Shown here: one piece after another, positions 39,208 through 63,732 of the stretch
How the letters are laid out: each line of letters starts with the position of its first letter
How positions within the stretch are numbered: the stretch's first letter is position 1
DNA from: Escherichia coli
GTDB taxonomy: Bacteria; Pseudomonadota; Gammaproteobacteria; Enterobacterales; Enterobacteriaceae
Assembly (NCBI RefSeq): GCF_041248615.1
Contig: NZ_CP158426.1
Length of the DNA stretch: 64,000 nt
Reading direction: 5' to 3' (one strand)
Notes under the pieces: model-generated
Database searches by the model: none
What the model was told of the DNA's origin: nothing
The model's input: only the letters and a program-made list of their open reading frames with translations
Program-made: the position numbers and the translations under genes

Positions 39208-39603
39208 TCAACGTATTATCTCTGGCCTTTCTGGCCAGGTTATTTCTGGAATTAAGGACAAATCCACTGACATTAAATTATTAACATATTCCTTCCATAA
39301 CAAAAGATTGTTCTTGTTATTTTCACTTATAATACCGAGTAACAAATCTGACTGCCAGTTCATAATTAAACCATTAGCACTATCCAGCAGACACTGTCTT
39401 TCATTCTCTGCCTCACGAAGTAATTCATCATGTGTTTTTGGCGGCTGCGTAGGTGACGAAAGCTTTCCCTTATCATAGAACCAACCAATTCTTACATTAT
39501 CGGATACAGGTATAACTAACGCATTAGTTGGTTGCCAGGCACTCTCACCATCCCATACCGCAATATTGGTAACAACACCATTTTCTATAACGGCATAGTT
39601 CAT
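39208..39603 (-). CDS. tail fibre assembly protein (Tfa-like chaperone)
   Basis: ORF 39208..39618 trimmed to MNYAVIENGVVTNIAVWDG.. (typical Tfa N-terminus); ATG overlaps tail-fibre stop. Confidence 0.8.
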   Translation of the reverse strand: MNYAVIENGVVTNIAVWDGESAWQPTNALVIPVSDNVRIGWFYDKGKLSSPTQPPKTHDELLREAENERQCLLDSANGLIMNWQSDLLLGIISENNKNNLLLWKEYVNNLMSVDLSLIPEITWPERPEIIR

Positions 39604-40712
39604 CACGCATACTCCCAAATGATTGCAATACCAGCCATTCCGCTACCTCCGGCACGCTGCTGCGTCGCTCCACCGTAGACACAGGCACCACCGCCTCCAC
39701 CACCATGGCCATTAGCATTAATACCTTCGCCTACAATGGCTTGTGACCCAGCCCCCGCACCAAGGATTGAATCGCCGCCAGGCCCCCCCATCGCCAGACT
39801 GCCGGAATACCGAACGCCTGGTGAGCTATAACCGCTTCCAGACCCGATAATATTTGCACCTGTAAATCCCGGCTCAGTATATGCTCCATACGGACCAACA
39901 ACCCCTGGAGCAGTTCCTTCAGCAAGAACATCCCCACCAAGGCCACCTTTGGCAATTATGGTATTGCCGAAAGAGGTTGTTCCCCCGGGAGCACCAACCG
40001 ACGCACTTGCACCAGTGCCACCATATCCGATTGTCACAGTAGTTACGGTTGGATTATCCACGCGAGCTTTAACATACTCCCCGGACATCCCCCCGCCACC
40101 ACAAGCAGCATTATTGGGATAACCGACCTGACAACCACCACCGGCCCCACCACCACCAACAATTTCAACAATAATAAATTTTGTGCCTTTTGTCGGAGTG
40201 TATGTACCTGAGCTTTTAAACACCTGACACTGTATAAGCCTCCCGGAGCCATCTCCCAAACCAAGGTATGCGAGAATGTCATCAATAGTATTTTTGCCGA
40301 TAATATCACGGCCTACCTTAGTGAGGTCGGTCTGCGCAGCCTTATCTGTGCCAGTGAAATACGGTAGCTTATTTGCACCTGTCGCCAGTCCGGCCAGAGC
40401 CGTCAACGTGGCATCAAGCGCCTGATAATCCTTACCGAATGCAGAAGACATTTTGGTAATGAATCCATTCAGGTCGCCATCATCCAATACATCCAGTCCG
40501 CTTTTGTTTGCTGTGTACTGTGCAAGTGCTGCAGCAATAAAGCTGGCCTGCCGAATAACCTTATTGACTTGCGCACTGGAGGCTTTCCCTGCTGTAAATC
40601 CGGATAAAAGCGCGGGCAACGCTTCCCATTCCTCCTGCGATATAACATTGGCATTTCGATCCGTTGCAAACGCTTTAAAGTCATTTTTCGCCATCAGAGT
40701 AATACTCCCCAT
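39603..40712 (-). CDS. tail fibre protein (Mu S/P2 H-like N-terminus, Gly-rich C-terminal domain)
   Basis: 369 aa; conserved N-terminal MAKNDFKAF..SQEEWEALP..; C-terminal glycine-rich repeats. Confidence 0.8.
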   Translation of the reverse strand: MGSITLMAKNDFKAFATDRNANVISQEEWEALPALLSGFTAGKASSAQVNKVIRQASFIAAALAQYTANKSGLDVLDDGDLNGFITKMSSAFGKDYQALDATLTALAGLATGANKLPYFTGTDKAAQTDLTKVGRDIIGKNTIDDILAYLGLGDGSGRLIQCQVFKSSGTYTPTKGTKFIIVEIVGGGGAGGGCQVGYPNNAACGGGGMSGEYVKARVDNPTVTTVTIGYGGTGASASVGAPGGTTSFGNTIIAKGGLGGDVLAEGTAPGVVGPYGAYTEPGFTGANIIGSGSGYSSPGVRYSGSLAMGGPGGDSILGAGAGSQAIVGEGINANGHGGGGGGACVYGGATQQRAGGSGMAGIAIIWEYA

Positions 40713-41374
40713 GCTCCTACATCAAAACCACTGATGAATTCGTTATCCATATCAAAACCAAAAAATTTTGAGCCTTCCGATGGGGTTTCCACCGAAGGTG
40801 TTTCAATGCCACCCGCCCATACCCCGGCAGCTTTTACTGTGAGATACCCCTGTTTAATTGCCGCAATTAACTCACGCGATACATCTGAAATATCAGTATC
40901 AGGAAAGACCCAGACCGATATCGTCATGTCCTGGTTATCGACTATCTGCATTCGCAGTCCGGATCCTACTGTCGCCGCGTCAAGAATTGCTGGAAGCGAA
41001 TCATTCCGTCCGTCCCAGTTATTAATCGCAATCTTCGCTTTAAGGATGACACGATAAGTTTCATCGCTGAGGTACATGTATCCGGAATCAGGATCGTATG
41101 GCCCCTGCCATACACCCTGATCATATCCAAGCCCGTCGGTATCCCAGCTGAAATAGACACCTGAGATAGGCTGGCTGACAACACGGCTACGTCCGATCCA
41201 CAATCCAAGAATGTCAAGTTGCACACCAACCGCAGAGTCAATATCAAATGCAGTAATCAGCCCTCTGGTGGCAGCCGCAACATCAATAAGCGGCCGGGTC
41301 ATCAGATCAACATGTGCAAGAAATTTAGGTTTGGTGGCGTGGTAGTTCGTGATCAGTTCGGTGTATTTGCTCAT
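40694..41374 (-). CDS. baseplate/tail protein (Mu gp48 / P2 gpI-like)
   Basis: 226 aa; position between baseplate J and tail fibre. Confidence 0.65.
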   Translation of the reverse strand: MSKYTELITNYHATKPKFLAHVDLMTRPLIDVAAATRGLITAFDIDSAVGVQLDILGLWIGRSRVVSQPISGVYFSWDTDGLGYDQGVWQGPYDPDSGYMYLSDETYRVILKAKIAINNWDGRNDSLPAILDAATVGSGLRMQIVDNQDMTISVWVFPDTDISDVSRELIAAIKQGYLTVKAAGVWAGGIETPSVETPSEGSKFFGFDMDNEFISGFDVGAWGVLL

Positions 41375-62088: not shown

Positions 62089-62577
62089 CTATGCTACATG
62101 TTTAATTTTCTCTACACGTTTCCGATTTTTAAACGCACTATCCAGAACCGGGTAAATCATAAACAACGAGGCATTAAGGATTTCGTCAACTTCCCGTCGA
62201 CAGGTTGCGAGCGATGGTTTTTGAATGCGCCCGCCGCCACGGCATAACATCTTGCGAGGTCTTGCGACGCGATGATAGTAAGATGCAATGGCGTGCTTGG
62301 AAGAGCCATGAGCGTAGTAGCTGAGGAGGATTCCAAAGGCTTTCTTGTCAATGTACATGACGGAATCGACGACCTGAGAAATCAACATTCCATCATCATC
62401 ATTACACATTGGCCTTGTCATAACTCTTCCCGGCTCTACGCTCTCCATGAACTTCGCTATTACGCTGCTCATGCGCTTTTCCAGACGACCTGAATAAACC
62501 CATGCGCCCCACAGTTCAAGCCAGCCATTCAGCCACTCATGCTGTTCTTTGGTGAGGTTTAGTTCTCTTATGCCCAC
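62089..62577 (-). CDS. late-gene antiterminator Q (phage 21/82-type)
   Basis: 162 aa; position between nin region and tRNA/lysis genes; Cys-rich zinc-binding region. Confidence 0.75.
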
Positions 62578-63125
62578 GCGCCTTCTCCCTGTACCTGAAT
62601 CAATGTGAGATTTCCGCAGAACACTGCCCCAGTATCGATATACATCTGGTTGGCAAATTTGAGTGGTTTCACTGCTGGCGTATGACCAAAGATAAACGTG
62701 TCCGCGCCTTTAATTTCTTTAACGATCCCGTCTTGTGAGTTGCTGATTCGTTCGCGGTTCCAGATTACCTGCTGATGATCAACTGGCTTTCCAAATTCGT
62801 ATTCGTCACAAGGATAATCGGCGTGGCAGATGACATATTTTTTACCTTTGCTCACCAGTTCGATGATTAACGGAAGTTCTTCTGCTTTATGGGCAAGAGC
62901 TTTAGCCAGAATTTCTTTGTCGTAATCGAGATTAAAGAACCAGCCACCGCCATTAAGCAGCCAGTGATTAACGTTTCCACGCTCTGATAAGCCATCAATC
63001 ATCATTTGTTGTCGAATCCAATCGTATCCAGTTTGTTCATAAGGTTCGTGTAGCATCCGTGCAGATCGCCAACCACCCAAATATTTCGGTATTTGCTGCC
63101 ATCAATTCTTTCGTAGATATTCATG
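62568..63125 (-). pseudogene. lambda-type Ser/Thr protein phosphatase (PP-lambda family) with internal frameshifting deletion
   Basis: ATG at about 63125 encodes [40 protein letters not shown] then stop; the rest ([31 protein letters not shown]) continues in another frame; GDxxDRG and GNHE metal-binding motifs are missing. Confidence 0.7.
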
Positions 63126-63732
63126 CAGCCTCACTTCTGCTGTTTCGCAGTTTTTTAAGTTTCTGTTGATACTCCGCCTTGATGGCCCTGCACTCTTCGA
63201 CAGTCCAGCGATGGCGGTTATGGTTTGATTCGATTTCGTCTACTGCTTCCTGCCCGATGCGGTTAATCAGTTCGACGCGATACGGAACGAGATTTCCGCT
63301 TTTGTGCTGGTTGCACACCACGCATTGCTTGTGAATATTGCGTTCATCAAATCGGAGTTGAGGCGCCGCAGCAGTTGTCCGGTAATGCCCGGCATCCCAC
63401 TGAGCAGACGTGAGCGTTCCGCACGAGATACATGGTAAGTCGCGGTCTCTTTCTCTGATGAAGGCGTTTACGGCTTGTTGGGCTTGTTTAATCCAGTAAC
63501 TGCGGGGCTTTAAGGCGAGTTTTCGAATCTTAAGTTTATCTTTCTGTTTCTGCTCCTCTCGTCGTCGTTTCTTCTCTGCTGCCTTTTCCGCTTTTTCGCG
63601 TTCTTTGCTTCGTCGTTCGAGTGCTATCTTGGTTCCACACTCTGGAGAGCACCACCACTGATTGGCGAATGCAGGGTGAAACCATTCCCGACATTCATCG
63701 TTTTTACATCGTCTTCGCGCTGGTTTAGCCAT
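63121..63732 (-). CDS. ninG: NinG (Rap) recombination protein
   Basis: 203 aa; basic, Cys-rich; matches lambda NinG-like sequence; stop overlaps phosphatase ATG. Confidence 0.85.

Follow-up and report, generated by a model that had tools for sequence, protein, structure and literature searches.

Which phages gave rise to the prophage at the lambda attachment site of this Escherichia coli genome, and do its genes belong to one phage? The question is raised by a stretch of 64,000 nucleotides of contig NZ_CP158426.1 (assembly GCF_041248615.1), referred to below as the window, in which positions 39208-63732 hold a long run of phage genes. A first-pass annotation had described this region as part of a mosaic prophage in which a contractile-tail virion is joined to lambdoid genes for regulation, lysis and integration, and had likened the tail to those of Mu and SfV. 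Our analysis indicates, with high confidence, that the region makes up the late half of one temperate phage genome of about 42 kb, integrated at the lambda attB site and built from modules of differing origin. The identities of the genes and their colinearity with known phages bear out the mosaic, and they place the virion in the lineage of phages SEN34 and vB_EcoM-611R5.

Organization of the late operon

The PGAP annotation of a near-identical prophage in E. coli NRZ14408 (NZ_LT599825.1; locus L001) was used as a scaffold, and each gene was checked independently. In the list of open reading frames (ORFs), the region 39208-63732 forms one uninterrupted late operon on the minus strand, with nearly gapless ORFs. 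Along this strand, ninF and the NinG gene are followed by a ninI pseudogene, the gene for the antiterminator Q, a promoter-like site with a terminator, tRNA-Asn, tRNA-Thr, and the holin, endolysin and Rz/Rz1 genes. A DUF6979 gene comes next, and then 27 intact morphogenesis genes, of which the gene for the terminase small subunit (TerS) is the first and those for the tail fibre and its assembly chaperone (Tfa) are the last. The genes named by the first-pass annotation were present where it had placed them, all on the minus strand. The succession of nin region, Q, putative promoter and terminator, lysis genes and virion genes on one strand is the lambdoid order.

The virion module belongs to the SEN34/611R5 lineage

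A run of 26 consecutive genes, from the DUF2612 gene to the gene for the terminase large subunit (TerL), was colinear with the corresponding genes of Salmonella phage SEN34, with the exception of a lipoprotein gene described below. The proteins were 65-96% identical in amino acid (aa) sequence at about 100% coverage, and the nucleotide (nt) identity was 76-85% over 17.6 kb. In the Escherichia phage vB_EcoM-611R5 (611R5 hereafter), the same 26 genes encode proteins of 94-100% aa identity (74% for the tape measure), again at about 100% coverage, and the DNA of 611R5-type phages was 96-98% identical over about 17.7 kb.

SEN34 has been isolated and sequenced; it has a contractile tail as seen by electron microscopy and a lambda-like regulatory region, and it was assigned to the genus Brunovirus in the 'temperate 26' lambda cluster (PMC5261728). 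SEN34 also shares the design of the window element. Lambda-like O, P, NinB, NinG and Q genes are followed by a lysis cassette, a virion module colinear from TerL to the wedge, the fibre and Tfa genes, and an O-acetyltransferase gene on the opposite strand beside the att/integration module. However, SEN34 differs in its integrase, att site, Q, holin, endolysin, TerS and fibre tip, and it has neither the lipoprotein gene nor the remains of a P22-like prophage that are described below. The phages vB_EcoM-611R5, 606R2, 683R1 and 689R2 (ON470579-ON470593) share the virion module with the window, but their early region is non-lambdoid, with a DNA polymerase, a helicase and a TIR-like protein. Q, the lysis genes and TerS are different too, and the fibre segment of these phages is invertible. 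Because 611R5 joins the same module to a non-lambdoid early region, the virion module evidently moves from one phage backbone to another as a unit.

A phage induced from a urinary E. coli, 97% similar to vB_EcoM-683R1, was found to be a myovirus by transmission electron microscopy (PMC12945033). The window element carries sheath and tube genes and has relatives that have been imaged, and it would be expected to form a myovirus as well. The approximate nt similarity over the whole prophage, computed on the NRZ14408 copy, was 36.5% to SEN34, 40.4% to 611R5 and 14.6% to lambda, and below 0.5% to each of Mu, SfV and P27.

These last values bear on the earlier view of the virion as an SfV/P27-style hybrid with a Mu/SfV-like tail. 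According to that view, the virion module would come from the Mu/SfV/P27 lineage, and the phage would merely happen to use lambda attB. The order of the spike, sheath initiator, J wedge, second wedge, fibre and Tfa genes does mirror that of Mu gp45-gp50. Baseplate_J and Mu gp47 share 26% identity (E 6e-5), Tfa has 29-35% identity with Mu U/U' (E 1e-5 for the match at 29%), a MuF-domain head protein is present, and the late cassette shares 96% identity with that of SfI, which we take to be an SfV-like Shigella myovirus. However, a core of spike, initiator, J wedge, second wedge, fibre and Tfa is common to most contractile tails and does not define a lineage. Apart from Baseplate_J and Tfa, only TerL (29%, E 4e-4) matched Mu, SfV or P27. 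For the sheath, tube, chaperone, tape measure, hub, spike, sheath initiator, second wedge and fibre, no BLAST match was found in these three phages at E <= 0.01, although in the positive control the tail proteins of Mu and SfV matched each other at E 1e-14 to 1e-90. The Pfam families of the module (DUF3383/E217_gp31, the PhiTE/KPP10 tube, Pam3_gp18, Dit_like, Gp138_N and DUF2612) include none named after Mu, no Mu chain occurred among the PDB matches at E <= 0.01, and the head genes are neither of the Mu nor of the HK97/SfV type. Kinship of the tail with Mu, SfV and P27 was rejected on the basis of tblastn, blastp with its positive control, blastn and Pfam, and we regard such an origin of the virion module as very improbable.

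The virion is thus assigned to a separate lineage, that of SEN34 and 611R5. In the comparison of the baseplate with Mu gp45-48, the gene order and the roles (spike, sheath initiator, J-type wedge and second wedge) held up, but homology did not, and the fibre that had been called Mu S-like found no BLAST match in Mu, SfV or P27. SfV, SfI and phiP27 do share the idea of the hybrid, namely lambdoid regulation, a Q-dependent late operon and a myovirus tail, and SfV carries its seroconversion genes between fibre and att, the position of the cargo genes in the window. Nevertheless, their virion lineage is unrelated, with no detectable similarity in the sheath, tube, hub, spike and head genes. We also looked for tail proteins of the siphovirus type and found none; against lambda, the virion proteins had no match except for a shared side-tail-fibre segment and the Tfa domain.

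A single prophage at the lambda attB site

The left end of the prophage, attR (34532-34740), lies directly after ybhB and consists of the lambda core TTAGTATAAAAAAGC (34536-34550, an exact match) and the P-arm of lambda attP. Next to the core, about 200 bp of the P-arm were 97% identical in nt sequence to lambda 27742-27534. The position of the core, between ybhB and ybhC, is that of lambda attB, which lies between gal and bio. In NRZ14408, a second core lies 42.3 kb away beside xis and int, which are 99% identical to lambda with the P'-arm included, and ybhC follows; only this one pair of cores flanks the unit of 42.36 kb. The att site and the integrase are of the lambda type, as had been proposed. 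The att core and the cargo genes (34759-39166) that had been ascribed to the prophage are real, but they lie outside the region 39208-63732. Over the integration genes, the att arms and the nin region, the identity to lambda is 96-99%.

The NRZ14408 prophage differs from the window by a single mismatch over 33001-63747. Past 63747, a 1-bp indel and eight substitutions fall within ninF, in the last ~250 bases of the window. This divergence points to a boundary of recombination, beyond which the window's own genome may have an early region unlike that of NRZ14408. Early genes that are intact in NRZ14408 are those of an N-like antiterminator and of cI, cro, cII, O, P, cIII, kil, xis and int, together with a Sak4/SSB/Abc2 recombination set; ren is frameshifted.

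Among 5426 complete E. coli genomes, 247 (about 5%) hold at least 80% of the virion module, and 46 hold at least 80% of the whole region 39208-63732 as one block. The one-block matches imply that these 46 genomes have the same junction between a phage-21-type late cassette and SEN34-type virion genes. A sibling prophage in E. coli SCU-301 (locus L015, 10150-49151) adjoins torT and has the same gene order, the same Q21/S21/R21 cassette and SEN34-type virion genes. It has the same cI/cro/cII and Q, an excisionase protein identical to that of the window type, and intact ninI, ninF and ren; its fibre end is different, with an invertible fibre segment (pinE remnant). Because the sibling differs in its site and fibre end, the integration and fibre modules have evidently been exchanged within the lineage.

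With three or four phage lineages giving DNA to the locus, and with 611R5 carrying the same virion module on a wholly different early region, one might ask whether two adjacent elements lie here, i.e., a lambdoid remnant beside an independent myovirus prophage or contractile injection system at an integration hotspot. However, a single att pair encloses the 42.36-kb unit, and the only trace of a second integrase is a fragment of 121 bp. No separate late activator serves the virion genes, which stand directly after the lysis cassette and TerS on the same strand. Moreover, the same junctions recur in the 46 genomes and, in SCU-301, at another chromosomal site, and the isolated phage SEN34 has the same layout of NinG, Q, lysis, terminase and tail genes. 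We consider the presence of two elements extremely improbable, and the locus is treated below as one prophage.

Late control and lysis

On the lambda side of the operon, NinG (63121-63732, minus strand) matched Pfam NinG with 304 bits and is 98% identical in aa sequence to lambda NinG. The ninI gene for a Ser/Thr phosphatase (62568-63124, minus strand; PHROG 246 NinI) is a pseudogene, annotated as 'frameshifted' by PGAP. Lambda 43888-43455 and 43343-43233 align to it as two blocks, with about 110 bp deleted between them. In the alignment with lambda, ninH is absent from the nin region. The ninF gene (63725-63895, minus strand) is frameshifted by a 1-bp insertion and intact in the NRZ14408 prophage, as judged from the alignment and the translations. 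The remnant in 39208-63732 that had been named ninF is in fact ninI, ninF itself lying just outside.

The Q antiterminator (162 aa; 62089-62577, minus strand; Pfam Phage_antitermQ) is of the phage 21 type and was 100% identical over 162 residues to the PDB chains 6JNX_P and 6P18_P, which we take to come from Q21 antitermination complexes. Directly after the Q gene, on the same strand, we read from the sequence a putative late promoter with a -35 element TTGACA (in 62071-62085) and an intrinsic terminator with a hairpin and a T-run (62001-62040). These presumably represent pR' and tR'. A Q21-type antiterminator would load onto RNA polymerase at the promoter just past its own gene and read through the adjacent terminator, and the transcript would then span the tRNAs, the pinholin, signal-anchor-release (SAR) endolysin and spanin genes, and the 19-kb virion block as one long RNA. 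The two tRNAs, tRNA-Thr(TGT) and tRNA-Asn(GTT) (61842-61997, minus strand; ARAGORN and Rfam), are flanked by the putative late terminator and the holin gene, and their expression would therefore require Q-dependent read-through. SfI and the SCU-301 sibling carry the same tRNA pair, and related Salmonella P22-like phages list one or both of the tRNAs.

The lysis genes that follow on the minus strand are of the phage 21 type too. The holin S21 (61508-61723) matched Pfam 'Bacteriophage P21 holin S' with 122 bits and has a dual start, M1-K-S-M4, and two hydrophobic segments, as seen in its sequence and hydropathy; its counterpart in phage 21 is annotated 'antiholin / holin class II'. The SAR endolysin (165 aa; 61011-61508) differs from RrrD (4ZPU) by four substitutions and matched 3HDE with a nearly equal score, and its Gly/Ala-rich N-terminus (residues 1-28) is the SAR segment. 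The Rz gene (60571-61014; Pfam Phage_lysis) contains, in the +1 frame, the embedded ORF of the Rz1 lipoprotein (60624-60815), with a lipobox LVVSGC and a proline-rich tail. As a whole, the Q-tRNA-S-R-Rz cassette was 93.0% identical in nt sequence to that of Escherichia phage 21 (OL657228), a lambdoid phage, and 96.4% identical to that of Shigella phage SfI. Together with the Pfam holin match, the endolysin match and the identity of Q, this agrees with the earlier assignment of the late and lysis genes to phage 21. In phage 21 and SfI, however, the cassette precedes other virion modules, whereas here it precedes one of the SEN34 type.

Intactness of the prophage and its remnant in E. coli B

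When compared with 611R5 or SEN34, each of the morphogenesis ORFs spans about 100% of the homologue. All the structural genes are of full length by this comparison, and none was found to be disrupted. The prophage had been proposed to be largely intact apart from decayed accessory genes; the full-length structural ORFs support this, with the early genes seen intact in the NRZ14408 copy only. To judge from its genes, the prophage looks functional and would be inducible.

Several observations weigh against reading the region as half of a functional lambdoid phage genome. The ninI and ninF genes and, in NRZ14408, ren are decayed, and ninH is absent; the accessory decay implies that the prophage is not a recent arrival. 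The window stops at 64000, and the region of N, cI, cro, cII, O and P lies beyond its end, while the last 250 bases already diverge from NRZ14408. The putative late promoter was not called by a scan for consensus promoters, its assignment coming from reading of the sequence only. Finally, the ICTV's present genus criterion is a whole-genome nt similarity of at least 70%, and the similarity of ~36% to SEN34 lies below this line, so the two have the virion module in common but not the genus.

The history of the same prophage type in E. coli B illustrates how far decay can go. A defective 'lambda-B prophage' of 12.1 kb occupies attB in the strains REL606 and BL21 (PMC4395058). In our alignment, REL606 (locus L003) was 99.2% identical to window 33001-40121, which comprises the 3' end of bioA, ybhB, attR, the cargo, Tfa and the fibre tip, and 100% identical to window 56785-59714, which comprises the 5' part of the portal gene, TerL and TerS. 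The junction in REL606 joins window position 40121 to 56785, a clean loss of 16.66 kb from mid-fibre to mid-portal. The lambda-B remnant has the same site, cargo, Tfa, fibre tip and lambda xis/int as the window type, but most of the lysis, nin and early regions have been lost. The remnant is thus a deletion derivative of this prophage type, of which the window represents the undeleted form.

One could accordingly ask whether the window prophage is cryptic as well, yielding no infectious phage, with its intact ORFs either fixed recently or kept for other reasons, such as a tailocin-like particle or the acyltransferase cargo. Besides the collapse to a 12-kb remnant in E. coli B, where the early region went along with the 16.66-kb deletion, the decay of ninI, ninF, ren, the tailspike remnant and the integrase fragment fits this explanation, and the immunity and replication genes lie outside the window. 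However, ninI, ninF, ren and ninH are dispensable in lambda, i.e., the decayed genes are non-essential there. None of the 27 ORFs for morphogenesis is shortened, nor are the lysis cassette and Q, and the identity to isolated phages is 94-100% (tape measure 74%, TerS 66%); NRZ14408 also retains an intact repressor gene together with intact cro, N, cII, O, P, xis and int. Head and packaging genes, which a tailocin does not need, have also been kept. A cryptic prophage is therefore unlikely in our judgment, and a largely intact temperate phage genome remains the preferred interpretation.

Parts of the virion

When the concatenated tail proteins were searched by sequence against the PDB (E <= 0.01), homologues of nearly every tail part were found in three solved virions, those of Vibrio phage XM1, cyanophage Pam3 and Pseudomonas phage E217. 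XM1 supplied the sheath, the wedge proteins and the sheath initiator, and Pam3 the sheath, tube, tube initiator, hub, spike, sheath initiator and wedge. Between them, the three phages have homologues of the sheath, tube, tube initiator, hub, spike, sheath initiator, wedges, portal and capsid. However, the likeness is distant (E 1e-6 to 1e-38), the hosts are different, and to our knowledge Pam3, XM1 and E217 have no lambdoid regulation.

All of the virion genes lie on the minus strand and are described here from the Tfa end. Tfa (39208-39603) was assigned by Pfam Caudo_TAP and PHROG 188. The tail fibre (369 aa; 39603-40712; PHROG 11303/863, Pfam Gly_rich_2) has a glycine-rich C-terminal domain, and over its N-terminal ~155 aa it shares 81% identity with the fibre of SEN34. 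PGAP splits the fibre of the near-identical NRZ14408 prophage into a partial pseudogene and a 'glycine-rich domain' gene; the 369-aa ORF is actually continuous and gives a full-length match to the fibre family. The wedge set, assigned by Pfam, consists of DUF2612/Phage_Wedge1 (40694-41374), Baseplate_J (41371-42570) and the sheath initiator (42570-42923), and its PDB matches were XM1 gp17/gp16/gp15, Pam3 gp21/gp22 and E217 gp44. The central spike (42923-43675) has a phi92 gp138-type N-terminal domain (PF18352) and a GpV apex motif (PF18946), and it matched 4RU3, 8EON gp43 and Pam3 gp20. Further along are the baseplate hub (44469-45533; PHROG 196, with a weak match to Pfam E217_GP41 below the cutoff), the plug (45536-45838; Pfam Pam3_gp18) and the Dit-like tube initiator (45838-46425; Pfam Dit_like), a block that matched Pam3 gp19 and gp17 in the PDB.

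The tape measure (46425-48413), with a C-terminal transglycosylase, DUF6889 (48394-48567) and the tail assembly chaperone (48591-49043; Pfam Phage_TAC_15) form the next block, which matched PHROG 2276 (E 1e-282 for the tape-measure block) and also PHROG 1688. The tail tube (146 aa; 49047-49487) belongs to Pfam KPP10_Orf10 (= Phage_Tube_PhiTE) and matched the Pam3 tube at E 3e-8. The contractile tail sheath (381 aa; 49498-50643) matched PHROG 205 'tail sheath' at E 2e-135 and Pfam DUF3383 (= E217_gp31_N), and in the PDB it matched the sheaths of XM1 (E 3e-38) and Pam3 (E 1e-22). Five ORFs for the tail terminator, the neck and head completion (50647-52706; Pfam Phage_tail_terminator_9; PHROG 222, 939 and 302) encode proteins 69-96% identical in aa sequence to those of SEN34. 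The head module (52748-59713; assigned by PHROG and Pfam) comprises the major capsid protein (313 aa), a cement protein, a DUF2213 scaffold/protease, a MuF-type head protein, the portal, TerL and TerS; with the exception of TerS, it is 80-95% identical in aa sequence to that of SEN34. Its PDB matches included the Pam3 portal (E 1e-36) and the Pam3 capsid (E 5e-18). TerL matched the 'Gene 2 protein' chain 4IDH at E 2e-26, which we take to be the large terminase of Shigella phage Sf6, and on the strength of this match headful packaging is suggested.

During particle formation, an HK97-fold capsid with a cement protein would be filled with DNA by the headful mechanism, and the tail would assemble on a Pam3-like baseplate of hub, spike and wedges and contract on infection. 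The encoded baseplate is a simple one, with a hub, a plug, a tube initiator, a spike, a sheath initiator and two wedge proteins, and there is a single fibre with its Tfa. Since the parts can be mapped onto the solved structures of Pam3, XM1 and E217, these provide a template for how the particle is built.

Cargo genes between attR and Tfa

Between attR and Tfa the GC content drops to 30-38%, and it is 30-35% in the first of two acyltransferase genes. Next to attR is a P22-like integrase 3'-end fragment of 121 bp (34759-34879, plus strand), which PGAP annotates as a partial pseudogene and which is 98% identical in nt sequence to positions 12142-12262 of locus L009. It is followed by the low-GC gene of a 381-aa membrane O-acyltransferase of the Acyl_transf_3 family (35228-36373, plus strand; Pfam PF01757; PHROG O-acetyltransferase / O-antigen acetylase), with about 8-10 hydrophobic segments. 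A P22-type tailspike remnant comes next (36411-37852, minus strand), a truncated and frameshifted 445-aa ORF that corresponds to residues ~170-648 of a 648-aa protein. It is 82% identical in aa sequence to the tailspike of a P22-like prophage (P0002), and it has lost the head-binding domain and carries a frameshift near residue 193. In intact P22-like prophages the tailspike gene is followed by a convergent acyltransferase gene and then the integrase gene. Because of this shared order and the 98% identity of the integrase fragment, 34759-37852 is regarded as a fossil, left over from the tailspike-acetylase-integrase end of a P22-like (podovirus) prophage.

A second Acyl_transf_3 O-acyltransferase (341 aa; 38141-39166, plus strand; Pfam PF01757; PHROG O-antigen acetylase) occupies the slot of SEN34's own O-acetyltransferase, to which it is 24% identical in aa sequence. 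SEN34 and P22-like prophages likewise have acyltransferase genes placed between tail genes and att. The description of the cargo as serotype-conversion-like is fair at the family level, given two genes that resemble O-antigen acetylases in Pfam and PHROG. In a lysogen, the two membrane O-acyltransferases would likely modify the surface polysaccharide, possibly by acetylation of the O-antigen. A preprint on seroconversion by Hf4s was considered as a parallel and set aside, as it concerns an unrelated podovirus.

A lipoprotein gene between hub and spike

The conserved lipoprotein gene is the only unexplained item of the region. It encodes 241 aa (43741-44466, minus strand), lies between the hub and spike genes, and has a signal sequence and lipobox (..FSLFLTSC) that we read from the sequence. 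The gene is absent from SEN34 and 611R5, and in these phages and in the SCU-301 sibling the hub-spike slot holds unrelated small ORFs. Homologues of 41-45% identity were found in the same slot in two distant relatives (L012 and L014). The protein had no family in Pfam, PHROG, PADLOC or NCBIfam, and fold searches against the PDB and BFVD gave no significant match; its AlphaFold2 model is confident, with a predicted local distance difference test (pLDDT) score of 85.6. As an exported lipoprotein, the product cannot be a virion part in spite of the location of its gene, which makes it a candidate for receptor masking or exclusion. We tentatively suggest, as an idea more doubtful than probable, that it is a new kind of phage-encoded envelope protein that masks a receptor, either for superinfection exclusion or for protection of the progeny from adsorption to debris.

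Other features of the window

Between the lysis cassette and TerS lies a gene for a 124-aa DUF6979 protein (60158-60532, minus strand; Pfam PF22399, PHROG 5039), for which searches with PADLOC and NCBIfam gave no match. The stretch 59714-60570 is variable: it holds the DUF6979 gene and about 440 bp in which no gene was called, and REL606 and SCU-301 have different ORFs there, on the plus strand. An Rfam scan of the window found only the two phage tRNAs and a host molybdenum cofactor (Moco) riboswitch (24976-25120, minus strand). The riboswitch lies upstream of the host moa operon and is ordinary host sequence, unrelated to the prophage.

Conclusions

The phage type found here is common and has been described previously. 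Lambdoid phages with a contractile tail of the SEN34 type were reported in 2017, and a near-identical prophage is already in RefSeq with automatic annotation. Little is new in this respect, and the useful outcomes are corrective; in particular, the tail should not be classed with those of Mu, SfV or P27. Lambda, phage 21, SEN34-like phages and P22-like phages are the sources of the modules, and the locus is a clear example of module exchange among them. The prophage is also the full-length counterpart of the defective attB prophage carried by every E. coli B and BL21 strain, and from the undeleted ancestral form one could trace the history of the laboratory lineage E. coli B.

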